From positions 1-9,216 of the IMG/VR virus record IMGVR_UViG_641736222_000030: a DNA stretch of 9,216 nucleotides. One strand, given 5' to 3'. Positions 1 through 9,216 of this stretch are shown piece after piece. The notes under the pieces were generated by a model. That model worked only from the letters and a program-made list of their open reading frames with translations, searched no databases and was not told the DNA's origin. The translations under genes were made by a program, and so were the position numbers. Position 1 is the stretch's first letter. Each line of letters begins with the position of its first letter. This DNA is from a virus. Taxonomy: Duplodnaviria; Heunggongvirae; Uroviricota; Caudoviricetes.

Positions 1-1239
1 ATGAGCAGGGCAATTCATAGACTTAGCGACACTCTTTTACGAAAATTAAGCGGATCACCAACCACAAAAAGCACCTTTTTTAATGATGGTGGCAACCTTA
101 GCGTAAGGCATTCAACCAATGGCCTGTTAACCTGGTATTTCACTTACAGGGCTGGAACTGGTAGGCAGATATCACCGGAACGTCTGAGGCTGGGCAATTA
201 TCCCGATCTGAGCCTGAAAGCTGCCAGGGAAAAAGCGGCACAGTGTCGCGCCTGGCTGGCTGAGGGGAAAAATCCGCGCTATGAACTTAATCATGCTGTA
301 CAGGACGCGTTAGCCCCCGTGACGGTTAAGGAAGCGCTCACTTACTGGCTTGAATCGTACGCAAAGGAAAAGCGCACTGACTACGAATCACTGAAAAGCC
401 GGATCAATAAACACATAATTAGCCAGATTGGCGCTATGCCACTGGAAAAATGCGAGCTACGCCACTGGCTGGCCTGTTTTGACCAGCTTGCTAAGCGTAA
501 TCCGGTATCAGCCGGATTTTTGCTACAGGTATGCAAACAGGCGCTTAAGTACTGCCGAAAACGACGATACGCAATCAGCAACGTTCTTGATGATATGGTT
601 GTCGGTGATGTTGGGAAAAAAGCAGAAATAAGCGAGCGCGTACTAACAAACAAGGAGCTTGGGGAATTACTACGCGCCCTGGATGAAAAAATTTACCCAC
701 CGTACTACAGCGCCCTGATTCGCCTCCTGATTGTCTTCGGATGCCGTACCACTGAGCTAAGACGCTCTGAGGTCCAGGAATGGGATTTTAAAGAAATGCT
801 CTGGACCGTGCCGAAAGAACACAGCAAAACGAAGGTAGCAATATTCAGGCCAATACCGGAAGCGATCTTGCCGTTTGTCATGAAGCTGGTGGAGCAGAAC
901 AGGCACACGGGATTATTGCTCGGAGAACTGAAAGGGCAATCATCCGTATCAGAGTACGGAAGAACGGCACACAGACGCATTAATCAAGCCCCATGGACGT
1001 TGCACGACATCCGGCACACGTTTACAACGATGCTGAACGATTTAGGCGTTGATCCTCATGTAGTGGAGCAGCTAACCGCGCACCAGTTGCCAGGAATGCA
1101 ACGAGTCTATAATCACTCCCGTTATCTTGATGCAAAACGTGACGCTCTTAATCTATGGGGTGAGCGTCTCGAGCTTCTCCAGAACAATGATGAAAAAATC
1201 GTTGTTATGACCTCGCGAATTTACTCCCAAAATTCTTGA
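1..1239 (+). CDS. int: site-specific tyrosine recombinase, P4-type phage integrase (412 aa)
   Basis: Complete ORF. N-terminus (DGGNLSVRHSTNGLLTWYFTYRAGTGRQ) resembles the arm-DNA-binding domain of P4-family integrases; C-terminal catalytic domain has box I Arg (FGCRTTELRR), HxxR (LHDIRHTFTT) and a Tyr region (VYNHSRYLD). Confidence 0.93.
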   Translation: MSRAIHRLSDTLLRKLSGSPTTKSTFFNDGGNLSVRHSTNGLLTWYFTYRAGTGRQISPERLRLGNYPDLSLKAAREKAAQCRAWLAEGKNPRYELNHAVQDALAPVTVKEALTYWLESYAKEKRTDYESLKSRINKHIISQIGAMPLEKCELRHWLACFDQLAKRNPVSAGFLLQVCKQALKYCRKRRYAISNVLDDMVVGDVGKKAEISERVLTNKELGELLRALDEKIYPPYYSALIRLLIVFGCRTTELRRSEVQEWDFKEMLWTVPKEHSKTKVAIFRPIPEAILPFVMKLVEQNRHTGLLLGELKGQSSVSEYGRTAHRRINQAPWTLHDIRHTFTTMLNDLGVDPHVVEQLTAHQLPGMQRVYNHSRYLDAKRDALNLWGERLELLQNNDEKIVVMTSRIYSQNS

Positions 1240-1388
1240 CAAATTACGGCTGTTTTTCTTCGGGAAAATAGCCTTCTTAAAAAAATCGTCGAAGTTCGAC
1301 CAAAGTTCGTCGTTTTTTTATTTGTCAATCATCGAAAAAATTGAAATTCACTCTCCTGAATCCTTATTCTCTGTTTCTTGATTGTTCC

Positions 1389-1437
1389 AACACCTGATGG
1401 TTTATCTATTTGTTTTTAATGAGGTAATTCAGGTGTT
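1389..1437. repeat. perfect 9-bp inverted repeat AACACCTGA / TCAGGTGTT, 31-bp AT-rich spacer, in int-alpA intergenic region
   Basis: Read directly: AACACCTGA at 1389-1397, its reverse complement TCAGGTGTT at 1429-1437. Candidate operator or recombination-directionality site; function not established. Confidence 0.3.
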
Positions 1438-1649
1438 ATGCCAAATGACGACATTTTTTGTTGCGTCGCTTAAAAACTCGTGACACGATTTTAAACACTA
1501 ACGAGCTTCTACGAACCTTAGCGAACAAAGCCTTTAGCATGGTTGTGTTTTTAATTTAAGAGGTGAAAAAGAATCTAAGTAATATCCGATCTTATATATC
1601 TACAGCTAAGAGAAAAGTTTATATACGTAATTTTTATGTAGGTTTTTGT

Positions 1650-1859
1650 ATGCGTGAAATAAATGAAGATCGTGTAATCCGCGAAAAAGAATGCAGAGAG
1701 CTAACAGGCGTTTGCCGCACAACTCGTTACGAGATGGAAAAGCAGGGCCGCTTCCCCTCACGTATCAGTCTTGGCGGTCGTTCTGTTGGCTGGGTTAAGT
1801 CTGAGGTTATGGAATGGGTTAAAAGCCGGGATCGTATTAATTCAGGTAAGGCAGCGTAG
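1650..1859 (+). CDS. alpA: AlpA-family (phage-type MerR-like HTH) transcriptional regulator, 69 aa
   Basis: Translation MREINEDRVIREKECRELTGVCRTTRYEMEKQGRFPSRISLGGRSVGWVKSEVMEWVKSR matches the AlpA pattern (TG-x-SR-x-T-x-Y, FP-x-x-LG-x-RSV-x-W, SEV-x-x-W). ATG at 1650 chosen over the ORF-track GTG at 1563 because AlpA proteins are about 70 aa; the ribosome-binding site is weak (AGG about 8 nt upstream). Confidence 0.85.
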   Translation: MREINEDRVIREKECRELTGVCRTTRYEMEKQGRFPSRISLGGRSVGWVKSEVMEWVKSRDRINSGKAA

Positions 1860-1872
1860 GGGGAACATATGA

Positions 1873-1905
1873 CACATAAAACAAAGGCGACCTGTGGCGG
1901 TCGCC
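1873..1905 (-). terminator. hairpin GGCGACC-N6-GGTCGCC followed on the minus strand by TTTGTTTTAT; putative intrinsic terminator for the divergent RHH gene
   Basis: 7-bp stem 1886-1892 / 1899-1905. The T-tract exists only on the minus strand (plus 1874-1885 acataaaacaaa). Sits about 90 nt past the RHH stop on that strand. Confidence 0.4.
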
Positions 1906-1993
1906 AATGGGAAAACACTCAACATAAGCCCGAACATCATAGCGATTTGCTGTCTGGTGGGCAATGTGCTCAGTGTGCTGGCTTGCTGGTGGA

Positions 1994-2173
1994 CTATTCC
2001 TGCTCTTTGGCCTTGCGGCGCTGGCGGCGTTTGATTTCGCCTTTAACGGCAGTAACTATAAATTGCGCTTTGCTTTCACCTTCATCTAAATTTTTTTCTA
2101 AGTCTGCAACAACATCATGCGGGAATCTGGCATTTAACTGTTGCGACTTATTATTTGTTGAACCTGTTGCCAT
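1994..2173 (-). CDS. ribbon-helix-helix (CopG/Arc/MetJ-like) DNA-binding protein, 59 aa
   Basis: Minus-strand ORF MATGSTNNKSQQLNARFPHDVVADLEKNLDEGESKAQFIVTAVKGEIKRRQRRKAKEQE: N-terminal beta-strand (QQLNARFPHDVV), helix, then G-E-S-K helix N-cap, and a basic tail. Start at the internal ATG (plus 2171-2173) with RBS AGAGAGGA 7 nt upstream. The competing + strand reading here is Cys/Trp-rich and not protein-like. Confidence 0.6.
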   Translation of the reverse strand: MATGSTNNKSQQLNARFPHDVVADLEKNLDEGESKAQFIVTAVKGEIKRRQRRKAKEQE

Positions 2174-2189
2174 TACTGAATCCTCTCTA

Positions 2190-2290
2190 AGTTGGTGCGA
2201 TTCAGTATACACAAAAAAAATTCAGAGAAAAGGCTTGAAGTGCGATTCACTTGCTGATAGGTTAAAAACAGATGGTGCGATGCACCAAAT
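2190..2290. promoter_or_regulatory. divergent promoter/operator region with three direct repeats of GTGCGATTCA
   Basis: GTGCGATTCA at 2195-2204 and 2240-2249, plus GTGCGATGCA (one mismatch) at 2275-2284. Minus-strand -10-like TATACT (plus 2204-2209) overlaps repeat 1; plus-strand TTGAAG-17 bp-TAGGTT (2235-2263) has repeat 2 in its spacer. Confidence 0.4.
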
Positions 2291-2363
2291 AACAACGCCC
2301 CGCAGTGGTGGCACACATGCAGGGCGTCTAACAACCAACGATAGCAACAGTATCGAGGTAGCT

Positions 2364-2570
2364 ATGAGAAATCATACCACACACCCGCAAGGGCGGGACT
2401 CGCACAACCTGAATAAATACATCTGGCGTTTTATCGCCCTGAGCACGGCACAACCGCGCGTGATTACCATTGAGGCCACCAGCGAACAGGAAGCACGCCA
2501 GCAATCTCCGGCTGGCTGCGTGATGGTATTCGCTGCCCGTATTCGTCAGGGGGAAACCTATGCACAATAA
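2364..2570 (+). CDS. hypothetical small protein, 68 aa (first gene of coupled cassette)
   Basis: C-terminal 68 codons of ORF 1869-2570, beginning MRNHTTHPQGRDSHNLNKYIWRFIALSTAQ. ATG at 2364 preceded by GAGG; an alternative ATG at 2280 has a poorer RBS. Stop overlaps the next gene's start. No family recognised with confidence. Confidence 0.5.
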   Translation: MRNHTTHPQGRDSHNLNKYIWRFIALSTAQPRVITIEATSEQEARQQSPAGCVMVFAARIRQGETYAQ

Positions 2571-2784
2571 AACCACACCGGACGCAACCGCCGCCGCACT
2601 CACTACACTGATGCACGCGCTGATTGATATTTCTGTTATTGCTGACAGGGCGCATAAACACGCAGCCAGAGAATCAGAATGCATCTTCCATTATTTAGCA
2701 TTTGTGCAGCTAAAAGCCGATCAGGCACTGGATAAGGCCGGAAAAATTATCATGGCTGATGTGCAGGAGGTGCACCATGCATAA
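2560..2784 (+). CDS. hypothetical small protein, 74 aa
   Basis: ORF beginning MHNKTTPDATAAALTTLMHALIDISVIADR. RBS GGGGGA upstream; 11-nt overlap with preceding gene and 8-nt overlap (ATGCATAA) with the following gene. Confidence 0.6.
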   Translation: MHNKTTPDATAAALTTLMHALIDISVIADRAHKHAARESECIFHYLAFVQLKADQALDKAGKIIMADVQEVHHA

Positions 2785-3142
2785 CCTGTCAATTTCTGAC
2801 CTTAACAGCATTCAGTTTGACGAGAAATTTACCGGGCAGTTGCTGGTCAATGTGGAGAACGGGCGCATAGTGCGTAATTATCACCTGCCGGATGGTGCAA
2901 TTGCCGGAAGCGTTGAAGCATTGCTGGAACTGGCGGAACGTGCGCGACTGATTAAGCCGTCAACGAGCCATCACGATGATGATCTGCATTTTACCGGATG
3001 TATGGTGAGTCACTACGAAAACGGCGTCGAGGTATCCTGCGAACGGCTGCGTGATGATTGCTGTTTCGGCACACTGCCGGAATTTATCGAGTTGCTGACC
3101 AGTTGCGGTTATCATGTCATTCAGGGGGGTAAACATGCGTGA
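2777..3142 (+). CDS. hypothetical protein, 121 aa, Cys/His-rich C-terminal half
   Basis: Start at ATG 2777 with consensus RBS AGGAGG (the ORF-track start 2759 has none). C-terminal 50 aa carry Cys75, Cys88, Cys95, Cys96, Cys110 and several His, suggesting metal binding. No family recognised. Confidence 0.65.
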   Translation: MHNLSISDLNSIQFDEKFTGQLLVNVENGRIVRNYHLPDGAIAGSVEALLELAERARLIKPSTSHHDDDLHFTGCMVSHYENGVEVSCERLRDDCCFGTLPEFIELLTSCGYHVIQGGKHA

Positions 3143-3368
3143 TGATCGTTTTAATTCCCTGAAACAGGAATTTTCCGGCGTTCCTGATGATGCGGCTGAT
3201 GCGCTTTCGTCAATGCCAGAGCTTATTAGAGCGGCTTTTTTCTTACTTTCCACGAGAGAATATAAATCAACGGGGCTTGATGTACTGAATATCGCCGCCG
3301 ATTATGCGGAATATGTGGCAGAGGCGCGTTATAGAAGAAAATTTCCTGAGGATGTAAGCCATGCGTGA
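3135..3368 (+). CDS. hypothetical small protein, 77 aa
   Basis: Start ATG 3135 after GGGGGG RBS; the junction with the previous gene reads ATGCGTGA (start embedded 5 nt before upstream stop). Translation begins MRDDRFNSLKQEFSGVPDDAADAL. Confidence 0.6.
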   Translation: MRDDRFNSLKQEFSGVPDDAADALSSMPELIRAAFFLLSTREYKSTGLDVLNIAADYAEYVAEARYRRKFPEDVSHA

Positions 3369-3594
3369 TATTTACCACCAAACAATAGACCGCGCATTTC
3401 TTGCACTTTCTCACAGTGAAAACATGATGGAAATATTTCGCATATGGCTTGAAACACTTGGCGACAATGAACGCGACAAACAAAAATCAAGAATTGCCAC
3501 GGCATTAATAACGCTTCTTGAGCCTGTAATAATGGAACTGCAAGAAATAGATCTATTGCACGACAGATATAAAGAACAGCACACCGGAGAATAA
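3361..3594 (+). CDS. hypothetical small protein, 77 aa
   Basis: Same ATGCGTGA overlap junction as the previous gene; RBS GAGGA. Translation begins MRDIYHQTIDRAFLALSHSENMMEIFRIWL, predicted helical. Confidence 0.6.
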   Translation: MRDIYHQTIDRAFLALSHSENMMEIFRIWLETLGDNERDKQKSRIATALITLLEPVIMELQEIDLLHDRYKEQHTGE

Positions 3595-3599
3595 AAATA

Positions 3600-3899
3600 A
3601 TGAAACTTAAATATTCTGGCTTAACTGCCAGTGGCAACACTCACCCTAAATTTACGCGCGGTGATATTTACCGCGACCAGTACGGCGGCACGGTAATGAT
3701 TAAGGGCGTGGAAGAACGGCGCGTAACCTACCGCCGTGAAGGTTACGAATATGATTGCGTGATGCCTGTTTATCAGTTCCGGCGTGATTTTTCTCTGGTA
3801 CAGACCGCGCCGCATAACGTGCCCACCAGCAACGCCAGGGCACGGGCAAACATCCAGAAGCTGAAAACCATGATTAACGGATTCAGGGGTAAAAAATGA
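3600..3899 (+). CDS. hypothetical protein, 99 aa, coupled to replication gene
   Basis: RBS GGAGA 9 nt upstream; stop overlaps the primase start as ATGA (3896-3899). Basic protein beginning MKLKYSGLTASGNTHPKFTRGDIYRDQYGG. Confidence 0.6.
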   Translation: MKLKYSGLTASGNTHPKFTRGDIYRDQYGGTVMIKGVEERRVTYRREGYEYDCVMPVYQFRRDFSLVQTAPHNVPTSNARARANIQKLKTMINGFRGKK

Positions 3900-5650
3900 A
3901 ACTGGCACCGAACGTAAAACAGCAGTCACGCGGCATAAAACACAAAGAAACAGAAGTCATTATTTTTGCGGGTAGTGATGCCTGGGCACACGCGAAACAA
4001 TGGCAGGAACATGATGCGCGTATGGCCGGAGATAATGAGCCTCCTGTGTGGCTTGGGGAGCAGCAGTTATCAGAACTGGATAAGCTGCAAATTGTGCCGG
4101 AAGGCAGAAAATCCGTGCGCATATTCAGGGCCGGATATCTTGCGCCAGTAATGATAAAGGCGATTGGCCAGAAGCTGGCGGCGGCAGGCGTACAGGATGC
4201 AAATTTTTACCCTGATGGTATGCACGGTCAGAAGGTGGAGAACTGGCGCGAATATCTGGCCCGTGAGCGCCAGAATCTTTCTGATGGTCTGGTCATTGAG
4301 CTTCCGGTAAAGCAAAAGGCGCAACTTTCGCAGATGGCGGACAGTGAGCGCGCGCAGCTGCTTGCCGATCGCTTTGATGGCGTTTGCGTACATCCTGAAA
4401 GTGAAATCGTTCACGTATGGCGTGGCGGGGTATGGTGTCCGGTCAGCACAATGGAACTGAGCCGCGAAATGGTGGCGATCTATTCAGAGCACAGGGCCAC
4501 TTTCAGCAAGCGCGTAATCAATAACGCCGTGGAAGCGTTAAAAGTTATTGCCGAACCAATGGGCGAGCCGTCCGGCGATTTGCTGCCGTTCGCCAATGGT
4601 GCGCTTGACCTGAAAACGGGGGAATTTTCCCCGCACACGCCGGAGAACTGGATCACCACGCACAACGGCATTGAGTACACGCCACCAGCACCAGGGGAGA
4701 ACATCCGCGATAACGCGCCAAACTTTCATAAATGGCTTGAGCACGCAGCCCGAAAAGACCCGCGCAAGATGATGCGTATATGTGCCGCGCTGTACATGAT
4801 TATGGCGAACCGGTACGACTGGCAGATGTTTATTGAGGCCAGCGGAGACGGCGGGAGCGGTAAAAGTACATTCACACACATAGCCAGCCTTCTGGCAGGG
4901 AAACAGAACACGGTAAGCGCTGAAATGACATCGCTTGATGATGCTGGTGGACGTGCGCAGGTTGTCGGGAGTCGTCTTATCGTCCTGGCAGACCAGCCGA
5001 AATATACAGGCGAAGGAACGGGCATCAAGAAAATCACGGGCGGCGACCCCGTGGAAATAAACCCGAAATATGAAAAGCGTTTCACGGCGGTAATCAGGGC
5101 GGTGGTGCTGGCGACCAATAATAACCCGATGATATTCACCGAACGGGCCGGAGGTGTGGCACGTCGTCGCGTGATTTTCCGTTTCGACAATATTGTTAGT
5201 GAGGCCGAAAAAGACAGGGAACTACCGGAAAAAATTGCGGCTGAAATCCCCGTCATTATCCGCCGCTTGCTGGCGAACTTTACCGACCCTGAAAAGGCGA
5301 GGGCTTTACTACTGGAACAGCGTGACGGTGATGAAGCACTGGCAATAAAGCAACAGACGGATCCGGTTATTGAGTTTTGCCAGTTCCTGAATTTTCTGGA
5401 GGAAGCGCGCGGCCTGATGATGGGTGGCGGTGGTGATTCAGTGAAGTACACGACCAGGAACAGCCTTTACCGCGTCTATCTGGCGTTTATGGCATACGCA
5501 GGCAGGAGCAAACCGCTAAACGTGGCTGAGTTCAGCAAGGCCATGAAGCCAGCGGCGAAAGTTTACGGGCATGAATATATTACGCGAAAAGTTAAGGGAG
5601 TAACGCAGACCAACGCAATTACAACAGACGATTGCGACGCGTTTTTATAA
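3896..5650 (+). CDS. replication protein: P4-family primase C-terminal (D5_N-like) region plus SF3 helicase, probable C-terminal ori-binding region (584 aa)
   Basis: Motif LPFANGALDLKTGEFSPHTPENWIT (aa 230-255) is typical of the region preceding the helicase in P4-alpha-like proteins. Walker A GDGGSGKST (aa 317-325, nt 4844-4870), Walker B RLIVLADQ (aa 360-367), motif C VLATNNNP (aa 404-411). The N-terminal ~190 aa is not confidently a primase catalytic domain. Confidence 0.92.
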   Translation: MKLAPNVKQQSRGIKHKETEVIIFAGSDAWAHAKQWQEHDARMAGDNEPPVWLGEQQLSELDKLQIVPEGRKSVRIFRAGYLAPVMIKAIGQKLAAAGVQDANFYPDGMHGQKVENWREYLARERQNLSDGLVIELPVKQKAQLSQMADSERAQLLADRFDGVCVHPESEIVHVWRGGVWCPVSTMELSREMVAIYSEHRATFSKRVINNAVEALKVIAEPMGEPSGDLLPFANGALDLKTGEFSPHTPENWITTHNGIEYTPPAPGENIRDNAPNFHKWLEHAARKDPRKMMRICAALYMIMANRYDWQMFIEASGDGGSGKSTFTHIASLLAGKQNTVSAEMTSLDDAGGRAQVVGSRLIVLADQPKYTGEGTGIKKITGGDPVEINPKYEKRFTAVIRAVVLATNNNPMIFTERAGGVARRRVIFRFDNIVSEAEKDRELPEKIAAEIPVIIRRLLANFTDPEKARALLLEQRDGDEALAIKQQTDPVIEFCQFLNFLEEARGLMMGGGGDSVKYTTRNSLYRVYLAFMAYAGRSKPLNVAEFSKAMKPAAKVYGHEYITRKVKGVTQTNAITTDDCDAFL

Positions 5651-5661
5651 TTTTTTGTAAA

Positions 5662-5890
5662 AGCCCTCTACCCCATCTACCCGAATGAAATAAATACATA
5701 TTATTCAACATGATAAGTGGGTAGAGGGCCAGGTAGAAGGCTAATAAAAGCTCTCTACCTCTTCTACCTGATTTTATCAGTTTCAGGTAGCAGGGTAGAC
5801 GGCAGGTAGAGGAGCCCCAAAAGCTATCTACCCGCTGAAAGCCTCGCCATTACTGACATGATGAGCATTCGGGTAGATGGGTAGAGGGGG
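5662..5890. repeat. iteron array: putative origin of replication of the element
   Basis: Eleven exact copies of GGTAGA/TCTACC plus one GGTAGC variant. TCTACC at 5667, 5676, 5754, 5763, 5827; GGTAGA at 5720, 5732, 5794, 5805, 5872, 5880; GGTAGC at 5786. Mostly in pairs 8-12 bp apart. Nested inverted repeats: 5664-5682 vs 5871-5889 (19 bp, one G indel), 5663-5673 vs 5719-5729, 5730-5739 vs 5761-5770. AT-rich segment at 5683-5718. Lies directly 3' of the helicase gene. Confidence 0.55.
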
Positions 5891-5934
5891 GGGAGGCACA
5901 ACTAAAAACTTTTTAAACGAGGGGGTGAAAATAA

Positions 5935-6249
5935 ATGCGCATACATCAAAATCACTTAACAAACATGCCAGCCGAAAACATGAATCAGGGGCGACAAATG
6001 ACCAAAATTCGCAGAGACAGAACAGAGCCAAAATATAAAGCGTTAGACATGACTGAGCATACCTTAAAGGTGGCAATCAGAACGATAGACCGCCATGCGG
6101 GGGAAGGATACGCGAAAGCACATCCCGACCTGATAAGCGCATTCATGACCACGACGGCGGCAAACTTTGCCACGCTGACAGAACGGGAGATTGCCGAAGC
6201 GGAACAGGTAACAACCATCAACATTAAAACCGGAGAGGTGGAATCATGA
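5935..6249 (+). CDS. hypothetical protein, 104 aa (start uncertain; alternative ATG 5998 gives 83 aa), coupled to ssb
   Basis: ATG 5935 follows GAGGGGG; ATG 5998 follows AGGGG. Stop overlaps the ssb start as ATGA (6246-6249). No family recognised. Confidence 0.5.
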   Translation: MRIHQNHLTNMPAENMNQGRQMTKIRRDRTEPKYKALDMTEHTLKVAIRTIDRHAGEGYAKAHPDLISAFMTTTAANFATLTEREIAEAEQVTTINIKTGEVES

Positions 6250-6668
6250 CAGCACAGATAGCCGCTTACGGGCGGCTGGTGGCTGACCCACAGTTAAAGA
6301 CCACCAGCAAGGGTACACAAATGGCGATGGCGGGTATGGCTATCCCCCTGCCGTGCAGCCAGGCCGATGACGGAACGGCGACGATGTGGTTATCCGTCCT
6401 GGCGTTTGGCAGACAGGCCGACGCACTGGCAAAACACCGCAAAGGCGAGCTGGTGAGCGTGGCGGGTAACATGCAGGTAAGCCAGTGGACAGGCCAGAAC
6501 GGCGAAACGCGGCAGGGCTGGCAGGTTATCGCAGACAGCGTAATCAGTGCGAGAACGGCGCGACCGGGCGGCAAAAAAGGCCAGCAGGGGCAGGCTACTG
6601 ACGCACTGAACAGGGCAAAACAACAGGCGGGGAATGATGATCCGTACGGGGATAACATACCGTTTTAA
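6246..6668 (+). CDS. ssb: single-stranded DNA-binding protein (OB-fold), 140 aa
   Basis: Aligns by eye with E. coli SSB: IAAYGRLVADPQL vs VILVGNLGQDPEV; WLSVLAFGRQADALAKHRKGELVSVAGNMQVSQWTGQNGETRQ vs [44 protein letters not shown]; Gly/Gln-rich linker; C-terminal tip DDPYGDNIPF vs host DDDIPF. Confidence 0.85.
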   Translation: MTAQIAAYGRLVADPQLKTTSKGTQMAMAGMAIPLPCSQADDGTATMWLSVLAFGRQADALAKHRKGELVSVAGNMQVSQWTGQNGETRQGWQVIADSVISARTARPGGKKGQQGQATDALNRAKQQAGNDDPYGDNIPF

Positions 6669-6683
6669 GCAACGAGTGACAGA

Positions 6684-6708
6684 AGCCGGAGAAATCCGGC
6701 TTTTTTGT
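6684..6708 (+). terminator. rho-independent terminator after ssb
   Basis: 7-bp GC-rich stem AGCCGGA (6684-6690) / TCCGGCT (6695-6701), GAAA tetraloop, then T6 (6701-6706), 16 nt after the ssb stop. Confidence 0.7.
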
Positions 6709-6899
6709 AGGTACTCCTGGTGGGGGTGGCCTGTCCACGGGGCGGAGGGGCGCGGAAAAAGGCGCATTTTTTGATTTTTATGGCACCATCACCACCACTA
6801 TAAGTTATTGATATATTGAGGAATAAAAATTTTTAGTGTCGAATCAGGTTGTTTTTTGTTCATCACTGGAGCGTTCCCGAAAGCATTTACAAAAAAATA

Positions 6900-6944
6900 G
6901 GCGCAAAAAAAGCGCCCCCGATTGCTGTTACCGGAGGCGCTTTT
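6900..6944 (+). terminator. alternative-hairpin element with weak terminator, upstream of capsid operon
   Basis: GCGCC (6912-6916) can pair with GGCGC at 6900-6904 (7-nt A loop) or with GGCGC at 6936-6940 (extended by 6918-6920 / 6932-6934, 11-nt loop), the latter followed by TTTT (6941-6944). On the minus strand the first hairpin is followed by TATTTTTTT. Confidence 0.3.
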
Positions 6945-7025
6945 ACACGACAAAGGAGTTTTTATCGCCAGGATGACGAGTCTTAATACTGCTTCAATGG
7001 CAAAAATGCGTCAATAACTTTGCCT

Positions 7026-7065
7026 TTCTGAGAATAATCAGAAAAAACATAATCTGATTTTCAGG
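7026..7065. promoter_or_regulatory. palindromic TCTGA/TCAGA sites in the probable capsid-operon promoter region
   Basis: TTCTGA-gaataa-TCAGAA (7026-7043, perfect 6-bp arms) and TCTGA-ttt-TCAGG (7053-7065), 70-110 bp upstream of the 7136 start. Candidate activator or repressor sites. Confidence 0.35.
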
Positions 7066-7135
7066 TAGAAAATGATTTATCTATTACTTTTATCGATCAA
7101 TAATGATGCCCGTTAATCAAAACGGAGGCGGATTT

Positions 7136-7330
7136 ATGCCAGAGAACAACACCAGAAAGCCGGATAAAAGTGCCACGGTACACATAGACGCCGGAACTAT
7201 GGAGAAGATCGAACGCTATCAGCAGTTCATCAAAGATAATCACCCGGGTATGCCAGTGCCCACGAAAGGACAAATCACACGCAGCGCGGTTGAATACTGG
7301 TACAGGGCAACGTTAGGAGCCTGGCTATGA
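7136..7330 (+). CDS. small RHH-like protein, 64 aa, coupled to capsid gene
   Basis: Start ATG 7136 with GGAGG RBS 8 nt upstream (the ORF-track start 7103 has none). MPENNTRKPDKSATVHIDAGTMEKIERYQQFIKDNHPGMPVPTKGQITRSAVEYWYRATLGAWL shows a beta-strand (KSATVHID), helix, then G-Q-I-T-R-S helix N-cap. Stop overlaps the capsid start as ATGA (7327-7330). Confidence 0.55.
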   Translation: MPENNTRKPDKSATVHIDAGTMEKIERYQQFIKDNHPGMPVPTKGQITRSAVEYWYRATLGAWL

Positions 7331-9216
7331 AAACATGGTTTTCCATTAAGGCTATGGCAGATGTTGTACATGTGCGCATTTATGACGAGATCGGCGGGTA
7401 CGGTGTAAAGGCATCGGCACTTACTGACGAGATCAACGCGTGCGGTAATGTGTCTGAAATCCATCTTCGCATCCATTCACCTGGTGGCGACATCTTTGAA
7501 GGGCTGGCTATCTATAACGCCCTGAAAAATCATCCGGCAAAGAAAATTGTACACATTGAAGGCATGGCGGCTTCTATGGCCTCGTTTATTGCCATGTGTG
7601 GCGATCACATCGTTATGCCTGAAAACGCGATGATGATGATACATGCCCCCCGTGGTGTTACTGCCGGAGTGTCGGGCGACGTTCGCCGCTTTGCTGACCT
7701 GATGGACAAGCTGGGCGACACGATGGCGGAAACCTACGCCGGAAGAACGGGCAGGAGCAAACAGGAAATCACCGCCATGATGGAGGCGGAAACCTGGATG
7801 GATGGCAATGAGTGTAAGGCTAACGGCTTCGCAGATGAGGTTATAGCCGCGATTACAGCAATGGCCCGAATTGAATCAAAACGAATCGGAGATTTTTCAA
7901 ATATGCCGGAAAAAATTAAAAGCATGATCAGCCAGAAAACTACCAGTGGCGAACAGGAACGACTTAACGGCATCCGTGAATTGTTTGGCACGTTCAACGG
8001 AAGATATAACGACCTGGCTATAAGTTGTCTTGCTGATTCAGAATGTAGCGTTGAGAATGCACGCGAACGCCTTTTACTCGCTATGGGTAAAGAATCAACG
8101 CCAACAAACAAAACCACCCCCGCAAATCTTTACTACGCGTACACGGATAACGGCAACATAACCGGCGATGCAATGCGCCAGGGGCTTAATGCGCGTCTTG
8201 GTCACGAACGGGCCGAACGCGGTAATCCTTACGCCATGATGAGCCTTTTCGATATGGCACAGGCATCATTAACCCATCGTGGTATAAGCACGGGCAGCTA
8301 CGGCACACGCTCGCAGATAGTAAACGCGGCATTCACCCACAGCAGCAGCGATTTTACCGATATTCTTGCTGGTGGCGCTGAAAAATCAGTGCTTGCAGGC
8401 TGGGAGCACAGCGGCGAAACATTCCGCCAGTGGACGAAAAAAGGTTCCCTTTCAAACTTCCGGGAAGCCCGCCGCGTTGGTATGAATGGCTTCTCAACGT
8501 TAAACAAAGTGCCGGAAGGGGCAGAATATAAATACATCACCACCAGCGATCGCGGTGAACCCATCGCGCTGGCTACTTACGGGAATATTTTCAGCATTAC
8601 CCGCCAGGCGATAATCAATGATGACCTTGATCAGTTATCAACGGTGCCAATGGCTATGGGCCGTGCTGCATCAAGAACGGTGGGAAATCTGGTTAATCTG
8701 GTGCTTACAGGCAACGTAAAACTTTCTGACGGAATAGCGCTGTTTGACAAAAAACACAGCAACCTGATTGAAGCAGGACTGACAACACCGGGACTTAGTG
8801 CAGCACGTCACCTGATGCGCACACAGAAGGACAAAAATGGCGAAGTGCTGAATATTGCGCCTAAATTCCTTTTAGTTCCGGCAGCACTGGAAGATCGCGC
8901 GTTGCAGATGATTAACTCAACCGCACCTTTCGGGGCTGATAAAAACAGCGGGATCTTTAACCCGTATCACAAGCTACTTGATATCATCGTCGATCCCCGC
9001 CTTGATGATATCAGCGAAAAACAATGGTACATGCTTTCCGCACAGGGAACGGACACAATCGAGGTGGCTTATCTTGATGGCAATGACGAGCCTTACCTTG
9101 AACAGCAGGAAGGTTTTATCGTTGACGGCGTGGCCTGGAAAGTCCGTATTGATGCAGGTGTGGCAGCTCTGGATTATCGCGGTATGGTCAAATCAGGCGG
9201 GACAGATTCACTCTGA
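7327..9216 (+). CDS. fusion ORF: ClpP-like (S14) prohead serine protease domain, linker, probable HK97-fold major capsid domain (629 aa)
   Basis: N-terminal ~180 aa align with ClpP: IHSPGG vs INSPGG; GMAASMAS vs GQAASMG (Ser83, nt 7573-7575); MMIHAP vs MIHQP (His106). The C-terminal ~330 aa (from about aa 300) have the size and composition of a phage major capsid protein (FSITRQAIINDDLDQL, LLVPAALEDRALQ). No stop codon separates the two parts. Confidence 0.85.
   Translation: MKTWFSIKAMADVVHVRIYDEIGGYGVKASALTDEINACGNVSEIHLRIHSPGGDIFEGLAIYNALKNHPAKKIVHIEGMAASMASFIAMCGDHIVMPENAMMMIHAPRGVTAGVSGDVRRFADLMDKLGDTMAETYAGRTGRSKQEITAMMEAETWMDGNECKANGFADEVIAAITAMARIESKRIGDFSNMPEKIKSMISQKTTSGEQERLNGIRELFGTFNGRYNDLAISCLADSECSVENARERLLLAMGKESTPTNKTTPANLYYAYTDNGNITGDAMRQGLNARLGHERAERGNPYAMMSLFDMAQASLTHRGISTGSYGTRSQIVNAAFTHSSSDFTDILAGGAEKSVLAGWEHSGETFRQWTKKGSLSNFREARRVGMNGFSTLNKVPEGAEYKYITTSDRGEPIALATYGNIFSITRQAIINDDLDQLSTVPMAMGRAASRTVGNLVNLVLTGNVKLSDGIALFDKKHSNLIEAGLTTPGLSAARHLMRTQKDKNGEVLNIAPKFLLVPAALEDRALQMINSTAPFGADKNSGIFNPYHKLLDIIVDPRLDDISEKQWYMLSAQGTDTIEVAYLDGNDEPYLEQQEGFIVDGVAWKVRIDAGVAALDYRGMVKSGGTDSL

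Follow-up and report, generated by a model that had tools for sequence, protein, structure and literature searches.

Six small overlapping genes ahead of the primase gene of an EcCICFT073-type phage-inducible chromosomal island: a probable early operon with constant ends and a mosaic middle

The DNA analysed here is a stretch of 9,216 nucleotides (nt), hereafter the window, which comprises positions 1 to 9,216 of the IMG/VR virus record IMGVR_UViG_641736222_000030 and contains six small open reading frames (ORFs; O1 to O6) that are chained to one another and run into a replication gene (pri-rep). We consider it probable that these six ORFs are the promoter-proximal part of the AlpA-dependent rightward early operon of a phage-inducible chromosomal island (PICI) of the EcCICFT073 type, in which coupled translation would deliver ribosomes to pri-rep. 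The cassette would then represent the usual early operon of a satellite family already in the literature and should not count as a new six-gene system; in addition, a published screen points to growth arrest by related cassettes upon the appearance of a phage protein. Cassettes of this kind (PICI early region, Icd-like gene, and RgdR) are already known and annotated copies of the sequence exist in public genomes; in the literature we found no description of the variant containing O3 or of functions of O2-O5, all of which are catalogued in PHROGs.

Several features identify the window as part of a Gram-negative PICI of Escherichia coli of the EcCICFT073 type, as far as sequence can tell. Its DNA is 99.8% identical to an island of ~10 kb located between cspD and clpS in E. 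coli O145:H28 RM12581, and a search of phage records with the whole window returned no nucleotide match. The gene order, i.e., integrase, AlpA, a ylcI/ynfO-family gene (minus strand), Icd-like gene, small hypothetical genes, DUF4222 gene, P4-family primase, single-stranded DNA-binding protein (SSB), and capsid module, matches that of the Gram-negative PICIs of Fillol-Salom et al. 2018 (PMC6092414). As is typical of PICIs, int (1-1239) occupies the left end and is followed by alpA in the same orientation as the remaining genes. The RM12581 island, which lies between cspD/yljB and clpS and whose sole structural gene is a protease-capsid fusion, also has the size (about 10-15 kb), the attachment (att) site of its own, and the lack of lysis and tail genes that characterize these elements. 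Directly 3' of pri-rep, an iteron-rich region (5655-5896) carries GGTAGA/TCTACC in both orientations around A+T-rich stretches: 11 of the 12 copies of GGTAGA in the window fall within 5667-5885 (219 nt), with 1.9 copies expected in the whole window and none of 200 shuffles reaching 12. This region is the putative iteron-type origin expected of a PICI. A weak Rfam match to 'MIR2617' at 5662-5743 corresponds to one of these inverted iteron pairs.

EcCICFT073 and O-island 51 / Sp7 (CP-933C) are the prototype Gram-negative PICIs (Fillol-Salom 2018, PMC6092414; Flockhart 2012, PMC3378721), and the window shares with them int, alpA, the minus-strand ylcI-like gene, the Icd-like gene, small overlapping genes, RgdR with ATGA into pri-rep, ssb, and an iteron origin 3' of rep. 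Like EcCICFT073, it contains a run of six small overlapping genes flanked in the same way, and the identity to EcCICFT073 proteins is 98.6% for the primase (Pri), 98% for O1, 94% for O6, 90% for O4, 86% for O5, but only 46% for O2. The window integrase shares 77% identity with those of CFT073 and Sakai, and an island with the same O3 protein at the same site encodes a 412-aa (amino acid) integrase with Arm-DNA-bind_3 and Phage_integrase domains. Differences from the prototype concern the integration site (cspD-clpS versus roxA-phoQ), the morphogenesis module (a ClpP-protease/capsid fusion in the window island), and the middle genes: O3 is found in neither CFT073 nor Sakai, CFT073 has an extra gene of our family F9, and genes of families F7 and F9 replace O2-O4 in Sakai. 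Helper-dependent induction, replication, and packaging have been demonstrated for EcCICFT073 only (PMC6092414).

The six ORFs, all on the plus strand, are O1 (2364-2570, 68 aa; Icd-like, first gene of the cassette), O2 (2560-2784, 74 aa; a small helical protein), O3 (2777-3142, 121 aa; a lineage-specific insert), O4 (3135-3368, 77 aa), O5 (3361-3594, 77 aa; helical, conserved, and preceding RgdR), and O6 (3600-3899, 99 aa; an RgdR homologue with a DUF4222 domain). The next gene on this strand, pri-rep (3896-5650, 584 aa), encodes a P4-family primase/helicase with D5_N, DUF5906, and Pox_D5 domains. O1 and O2 overlap by 11 nt (ATGCACAATAA), O2 and O3 by 8 nt (ATGCATAA), and both O3/O4 and O4/O5 by 8 nt (ATGCGTGA), O5 is separated from O6 by 5 nt, and O6 overlaps the primase start by ATGA; all six window junctions are therefore either stop/start overlaps or gaps of at most 5 nt. 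All seven starts are preceded by a Shine-Dalgarno (SD)-like site whose predicted duplex with the anti-SD sequence ranges from -6.6 to -11.6 kcal/mol (-9.4, -11.6, and -11.5 kcal/mol for O2, O3, and O4, respectively), placing the cassette starts within the best 1-10% of the 201 window ATGs scored. No terminator-like site was detected on the plus strand of 2364-3899. The first-pass annotation, made from the sequence without database searches, had described six ORFs of 68-121 aa with these coordinates and junctions and a ribosome-binding site for each, and all of this was confirmed.

All six ORFs have matches to PHROG families (1e-28 to 1e-49). Against diverged homologues, the ratio of nonsynonymous to synonymous substitution rates (dN/dS) was 0.22-0.44 for O1, 0.20 for O5 (versus CFT073), and 0.24-0.43 for O6; constraint was weaker for O2 (0.39-0.73) and O4 (0.69), with values still below 1. 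Considering these family matches and dN/dS ratios, the six ORFs are genuine genes and not chance ORFs.

The octamer ATGCRTRA, whose repetition had been read in the first-pass annotation as a sign of obligate co-translation, occurs four times in the window versus 1.8 expected. As 25 of 200 shuffles reach four copies, the count alone is not significant; what does stand is the placement, since all four copies lie on start codons, including that of alpA at 1650. The C-termini of O2, O3, and O4 all read ...HA-stop and the genes that follow begin MH... or MR..., which suggests that CATGCRTRA is a repeated joint for module exchange. The alpA start codon (1650-1657) lies within the same ATGCGTGA octamer as the O3/O4 and O4/O5 junctions, and no upstream ORF ends there. 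ATGA overlaps are also present elsewhere in the window (gene pairs 6246/6249 and 7327/7330), implying that tight packing is a property of the whole island and not specific to the cassette.

Comparison with related islands provides the second line of evidence. A set of 37 loci yielded 21 distinct cassettes, most of which come from E. coli and are not independent of one another. An Icd-like gene is first in 21/21 cassettes, an O5-like gene precedes RgdR in 20/21, and RgdR is last in 21/21. In all of them this last, DUF4222-encoding gene overlaps the Rep gene by ATGA, whether the latter is of the D5_N, AAA_25, or DUF927 type. Among 108 junctions in these cassettes, 104 are overlaps (82) or gaps of at most 5 nt (22), so that the chain of overlaps into the replication gene noticed at first pass is real and evolutionarily conserved. 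The conserved features are thus the tight stop/start packing and the pairing of DUF4222 with an initiator.

O1 scores 69.8 bits against the NCBIfam model NF033153 (curated cut-off 25), with which P1 Icd itself scores 52.6 bits, and a pairwise BLASTP alignment of O1 and P1 Icd shows 35% identity over a 43-residue core (E 2e-6). These results identify O1 as a bona fide Icd-family protein, in agreement with the tentative Icd-like call made for it at first pass, and by homology it may be a small division or growth inhibitor and is a candidate growth-arrest effector. No sequence relatives of O1 with solved structures were found. In the P1 record, icd and ant1 share an ATGA overlap, and the annotation of icd reads 'apparently required for expression of ant'; P1 icd is a classic small leader gene gating a downstream gene, and O1 and P1 Icd are homologous. 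The cassette thus resembles the P1 immI operon (c4, icd, ant1/2) in that an Icd-family ORF is translated first and overlaps the next gene, but differs from it in that the downstream genes are small uncharacterized genes and a primase rather than an antirepressor. A C4/CI-type antisense RNA ahead of icd, as in P1 and P4, was considered and rejected: an Rfam scan of the whole window (E up to 1) gave three weak unrelated matches.

The O1 frame is open for a further 495 nt upstream, forming a 233-aa ORF (window 1869-2570) antisense to the ylcI-like gene. We rejected this longer form as the true O1 because homology between islands starts only at 2322, the Prokaryotic Genome Annotation Pipeline (PGAP) annotates the 68-aa form together with the antisense ylcI, and a good SD precedes 2364. 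In related islands, 'Icd-like' proteins of 236-342 aa are sometimes called by gene callers.

O6 (99 aa) matches Pfam DUF4222 (PF13973) with 85.7 bits, carries an RGD motif at residues 20-22 (KFTRGDIY) within a conserved core spanning residues 20-68, and is 81% identical over 99 aa to ECs1581 of the Sakai prophage Sp7/OI-51 and 94% identical to C1493 of CFT073. RgdR proteins are defined by PF13973, a length of about 99 aa, RGD at residues 20-22, and >77% identity to ECs1581; O6 shows all four properties and is identified here as RgdR, which is encoded by every E. coli PICI analysed by Fillol-Salom et al. (PMC6092414). With these assignments (NF033153 for O1, DUF4222/RgdR (PMC3378721) for O6, and PHROG families for all six), the initial view that none of the genes belongs to a nameable family no longer holds. 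An AlphaFold model of O6 (86 sequences; predicted local distance difference test (pLDDT) about 91 for residues 21-70) shows five strands forming an SH3/Tudor-like barrel, with a C-terminal helix after it, from which RgdR is predicted to be a small basic protein with an SH3/Tudor-like barrel core, the fold neighbours of the model being generic. PDB sequence searches with O6 gave only noise. When one genome per species was scanned for relatives of O6, only Shigella and E. albertii loci were returned, and the breadth of DUF4222 outside Escherichia was judged from protein matches. O5 matches phrog_2196; an exhaustive HMMER search for remote homologues among 1.84 billion proteins retrieved 10 cluster representatives and nothing informative, showing that the O5 family is very narrow.

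Based on gene anatomy and its conservation, from which coupling is inferred, we propose that transcription would begin in, or read through, the alpA / ylcI-icd intergenic region and would rise upon induction of AlpA by a helper phage, as published for EcCICFT073. A single mRNA would carry the Icd-like gene, the variable small genes, the O5-like gene, RgdR, and pri-rep. Given the stop-on-start packing and the SD site of each gene, ribosomes could re-initiate on the next ORF and keep the mRNA covered, and the replication gene would be expressed only when the leader genes are translated, in parallel with icd-ant1 of P1. Such an operon may consist of three layers: a constant Icd-like first gene with a role like that of icd for ant in P1; a constant terminal pair, O5-like and RgdR, which might act with or on the replicase; and a mosaic middle exchanged at gene boundaries, in which O2 and O4 would form a two-part protein and O3 a lineage-specific add-on.

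Several points weigh against this proposal. The minus-strand ylcI-like gene lies between alpA and O1, so it is uncertain whether transcription from PalpA reads through, and a sigma-70 scan of 2174-2363 gave nothing convincing. As an SD precedes every gene, independent initiation at each could be enough, and the coupling may be weak. Frameshifts in O4 open untranslated gaps of 69-92 nt that are tolerated in natural isolates, so an unbroken ribosome relay is apparently not essential and the dependence would not be absolute. A division block has been established only for P1 Icd, to which O1 is 35% identical, and the published RgdR phenotypes concern host genes (the enterocyte effacement locus (LEE) and motility) and not the PICI cycle. 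We found no report in the literature of a deletion of cassette genes in a PICI, nor an account of what the Icd-like, O5-like, or RgdR proteins do for the PICI itself, though they are constant parts of the operon.

It is also possible, if unlikely, that the cassette and primase form a phage-triggered growth-arrest or superinfection-exclusion module, in which a protein of an infecting phage activates the system and the Icd-like protein and its neighbours stop growth. In ECOR61, transposon suppressors of the growth arrest triggered by orf24 fell in an Icd-like gene and the next two small genes; the arrest depended on the whole set of six linked genes, the primase among them, with the Icd-like gene being essential, and similar behaviour was seen for a P4-like AlpA / Icd-like / primase locus in ECOR15 (Silas et al., bioRxiv 10.1101/2023.04.06.535777). 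The two small genes of ECOR61 measure 186 and 192 nt, and their sizes and overlaps resemble those of Sakai ECs1578-1579. However, the ECOR61 cassette is then apparently of the Sakai type, judged by gene sizes only, and the middle genes of that type are unrelated to O2-O4. The screen speaks for growth arrest by such cassettes, and indirectly for a division-inhibiting Icd-like protein, but the arrest could equally reflect induction of the island, considering that uncontrolled replication of EcCICFT073 is itself toxic (PMC6092414). Furthermore, PADLOC found no match to a defence family for O1-O6, its one weak match (mad3, E 0.0046) being to the primase ATPase. Helper-interference or anti-defence functions, which the first-pass annotation placed at this position between alpA and the replication gene, are conjectural here. 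The long 'Icd-like' ORFs of the gene callers may account for the 'long N-terminal extension' described in ECOR61.

Returning to the early operon, the constant RgdR gene adjoins a replication gene that is itself exchanged. In related islands the latter is swapped among three types, namely the D5_N/DUF5906 primase-helicase, a RepA/AAA_25 helicase, and a DUF927 helicase, and yet the N-terminal ~125 aa (122-163 aa aligned; window 3896-4270) are 63-83% identical across the three types. This N-terminal domain has no Pfam match, and a PDB search gave only noise. DNA homology extends from O4 to about 4270-4317, with recombination breakpoints just past the Rep N-terminal domain. Together, the shared N-terminus and the extent of DNA homology point to a conserved block formed by O4, O5, RgdR, and the Rep N-terminal domain. 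In addition, short DUF4222 genes (59-73 aa) overlap the starts of lambda-O-like initiator genes by 11 nt in a Klebsiella lambdoid phage, SfIV, and the e14 prophage. That DUF4222 is coupled to four unrelated families of initiators suggests that its role is linked to the expression or function of the initiator.

In the e14 prophage of E. coli K-12, the DUF4222 gene is an unannotated 59-aa ORF with a TTG start (L037:5002-5181, equal to NC_000913.3 1204001-1204180; Pfam 8.6e-19), which lies out of frame within the 3' half of ymfM and overlaps the start of oweE/ymfN by 11 nt. The product of ymfM is a published SOS-inducible division inhibitor. When the overlap is compared with the Klebsiella phage, 23 of 30 substitutions fall at the third codon position of the DUF4222 frame, and amino-acid identity is 52/60 in that frame versus 28/54 in the ymfM frame, which marks the DUF4222 frame as the one under selection. 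The annotated ymfM ORF holds 53 of the 59 DUF4222 codons, and so would a clone of ymfM. Phage annotations lying under tblastn matches had raised the idea that DUF4222 is YmfM; this was rejected, as K-12 YmfM lacks a DUF4222 domain and does not resemble O6 in sequence, and the tblastn matches are in a different reading frame overlapping ymfM.

A more specific idea, that DUF4222/RgdR is an accessory factor of replication initiation in mobile elements, coupled in cis to the next initiator and forming with the Icd-like protein a helper-sensing growth-halt/replication-licensing module, is rather doubtful at present. If it were true, the initiator partners of RgdR would be the P4-type primase, the RepA-type helicase, the DUF927 helicase, or lambda O, and its effects on LEE and motility would be side effects, arising for example through binding of RNA polymerase or the nucleoid as by the Tudor domains of UvrD and CarD. 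The 'ymfM' locus of e14 would then hide a better-conserved DUF4222 gene that might contribute to the published division-inhibitor phenotype. In any case, the coupling of DUF4222 to initiators offers a testable hypothesis on how a 'virulence regulator' works.

Those host phenotypes raise the alternative that the cassette is mainly host-directed cargo carrying RgdR-like regulators of virulence and motility, its overlaps being ordinary phage-style packing. Global effects of RgdR on regulation have been published: both ECs1581 and the CFT073 orthologue C1493 act as activators of LEE1 and type III secretion and as repressors of motility (PMC3378721; PMC10877973), and the ATGA overlaps elsewhere in the island fit such packing. 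Nevertheless, we regard this explanation as improbable: RgdR homologues are present in commensal and LEE-negative strains (PMC3378721) and in about 1166 of 5426 genomes, DNA binding by RgdR in the published electrophoretic mobility shift assay (EMSA) was non-specific (PMC3378721), and DUF4222 is joined to initiator genes in PICIs and lambdoid phages alike, which points to a function in the cycle of the element itself, the effects on the host being a by-product.

The middle genes vary most. O2 matches phrog_5146 (1.8e-42) and positions 1-74 of phrog_2512, and O4 matches positions 78-154 of phrog_2512 (1.8e-49); correspondingly, O2 is 56% identical to residues 1-73, and O4 98.7% identical to residues 78-154, of a 154-aa protein of the O103:H2 island L002. 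Genes like O2 and O4 occur adjacent to each other (73+77 or 79+77 aa), fused in frame (151-154 aa; L002:6239-6703), or split by O3. O2 and O4 thus behave as two halves of one protein, and their natural in-frame fusion in other islands suggests that the products interact. Together with the breakpoints at gene boundaries, this split-or-fused pair is a clean small illustration of how modules are exchanged at stop/start junctions. Frameshifts or truncations (46-50 aa) affect O4 in RM12581 (L001:12814-13046), in the Shigella flexneri locus L005 (5540-5692), and in locus L016 (4529-4669).

O3 matches phrog_340, and among the loci examined it was found, and splits O2/O4, only in the cspD-site lineage of the window, the exact O3 protein being at the cspD site in all 10 places returned. 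It is an internal duplication of a ~45-aa unit, with two similar beta-beta-beta-alpha units in the AlphaFold2 secondary structure (pLDDT only 59); no fold match was found, the model being too poor for an assignment. Members of the O3 family occur in both E. coli and Salmonella, where internal-deletion and fusion variants are numerous, and its full-length form is 72-78% identical in Salmonella. Natural forms of 83-91 aa resemble products of recombination between the two units, fusion partners include O4 (196 aa), Icd-like proteins, the N-terminus of the AntA antirepressor, and a DUF4222 protein, and some relatives carry a precomputed match to PF27490, which is absent from the Pfam copy used. 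No Pfam, NCBIfam, or PADLOC match was obtained for O2-O5, and a PDB sequence search, run for O3 only of these, gave only noise.

Considering the weak constraint on O2 and O4, the frequent fusions, internal deletions, and frameshifts, and the absence of a fold match for O3, these three ORFs might be mostly translated spacers that keep ribosomes on the mRNA while their products are dispensable and drifting. We have little confidence in this explanation. The strong SD sites of O2, O3, and O4, the PHROG matches, the full-length O3 kept in Salmonella, and dN/dS values below 1 all argue against it.

Gene content among the islands bears on the proposal of the first-pass annotation that the six genes are obligately co-translated in fixed stoichiometry. 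The number of small genes in related islands is 3, 4, 5, or 6: Sakai-type islands have two unrelated genes in the middle, E. albertii has a single middle gene, and the cassette comprises four genes in islands that share the cspD site and whose O1 is identical. In blastn comparisons homology resumes exactly at 3135 (the O4 ATG) in 7 of 13 cases and just upstream of O6 in 4. Among 5426 complete E. coli genomes (at least 80% coverage), O1 was detected in 1133, O6 in 1166, O5 in 783, O4 in 681, O3 in 345, and O2 in 193, a six-fold range (193 to 1166), and the whole cassette was detected in 135. Because the middle genes are swapped, fused, deleted, or frameshifted and prevalence is unequal, the cassette is neither an obligate unit nor a fixed six-subunit machine. 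Co-occurrence had been named beforehand as the check on this point, with free variation of the genes counting against the proposal; the middle genes do vary freely, and the ends are constant. The notion of six proteins in fixed stoichiometry forming one complex or pathway, for which one may cite the tight chaining of all six genes and the O2-O4 fusion elsewhere as a hint that at least these two cooperate, is therefore highly implausible and largely refuted by the varying gene number, the finding of O3 in one lineage only, the O4 pseudogenes of RM12581 and Shigella L005 and L016, and the rarity of the complete set.

A comparable arrangement is known from satellite P4, in whose left operon small genes (kil, eta, epsilon, cnr) lie upstream of the alpha primase gene. 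The likeness is that small regulatory, interference, or toxic genes are transcribed ahead of a P4-family primase/helicase. At the thresholds used, P4 records gave no match to the O1 or O6 proteins or to window DNA, O2-O5 not having been searched against phage records. Only AlpA, Pri-Rep, and Int are distantly common to P4 and PICIs (Fillol-Salom 2018, PMC6092414).

Upstream of the cassette, alpA (1650-1859, plus strand) encodes a 69-aa AlpA-family regulator (Pfam Phage_AlpA, 7.7e-18) in the same position as in EcCICFT073, where AlpA is the activator of the PICI cycle (PMC6092414). The ylcI/ynfO-family small gene (1994-2173, minus strand; NCBIfam NF041551, 2.3e-17) is divergent from the cassette, is annotated by PGAP in the 99.8% identical island, and is found in most related islands. 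A repeat search in the divergent region between ylcI and O1 revealed three direct repeats GTGCGAT(T/G)CA (2195-2284; at 2195, 2240, and 2275), one inside the ylcI-like gene at its 5' end and the other two between this gene and O1, which we infer to be candidate operators. The ylcI-like protein and the triple repeats are a candidate repressor/operator pair in an element family said to have no known repressor. In the O103:H2 island (L002), a different triple palindrome, GTGTTCAACAC, is present in the same place, and the N-terminal half of the small protein has diverged. Triple repeats are not a universal trait, being absent from CFT073 and Sakai-type islands by the same criterion. The O1 leader with its SD (2322-2363, plus strand; GAGGT, -7.2 kcal/mol) is conserved, and homology to islands with unrelated upstream sequence begins at 2322.

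At the other end of the window, a fusion of a ClpP-like prohead protease and a major capsid protein (7327-9216; L001:16986-18875) is the one structural gene within the portion of the island covered, and the RM12581 island lacks portal and terminase genes, unlike capsid-forming PICIs. The sole 'phage' record with an O1-like protein (at 9397-9540) is LR881103.1 (Escherichia phage vB_KppS-Ant, 16.5 kb), an 'induced prophage' entry that is probably a satellite deposited as a phage. The SSB gene is intact in the window (6246-6668, 140 aa) and has an internal stop in RM12581 (L001:15924-16334).

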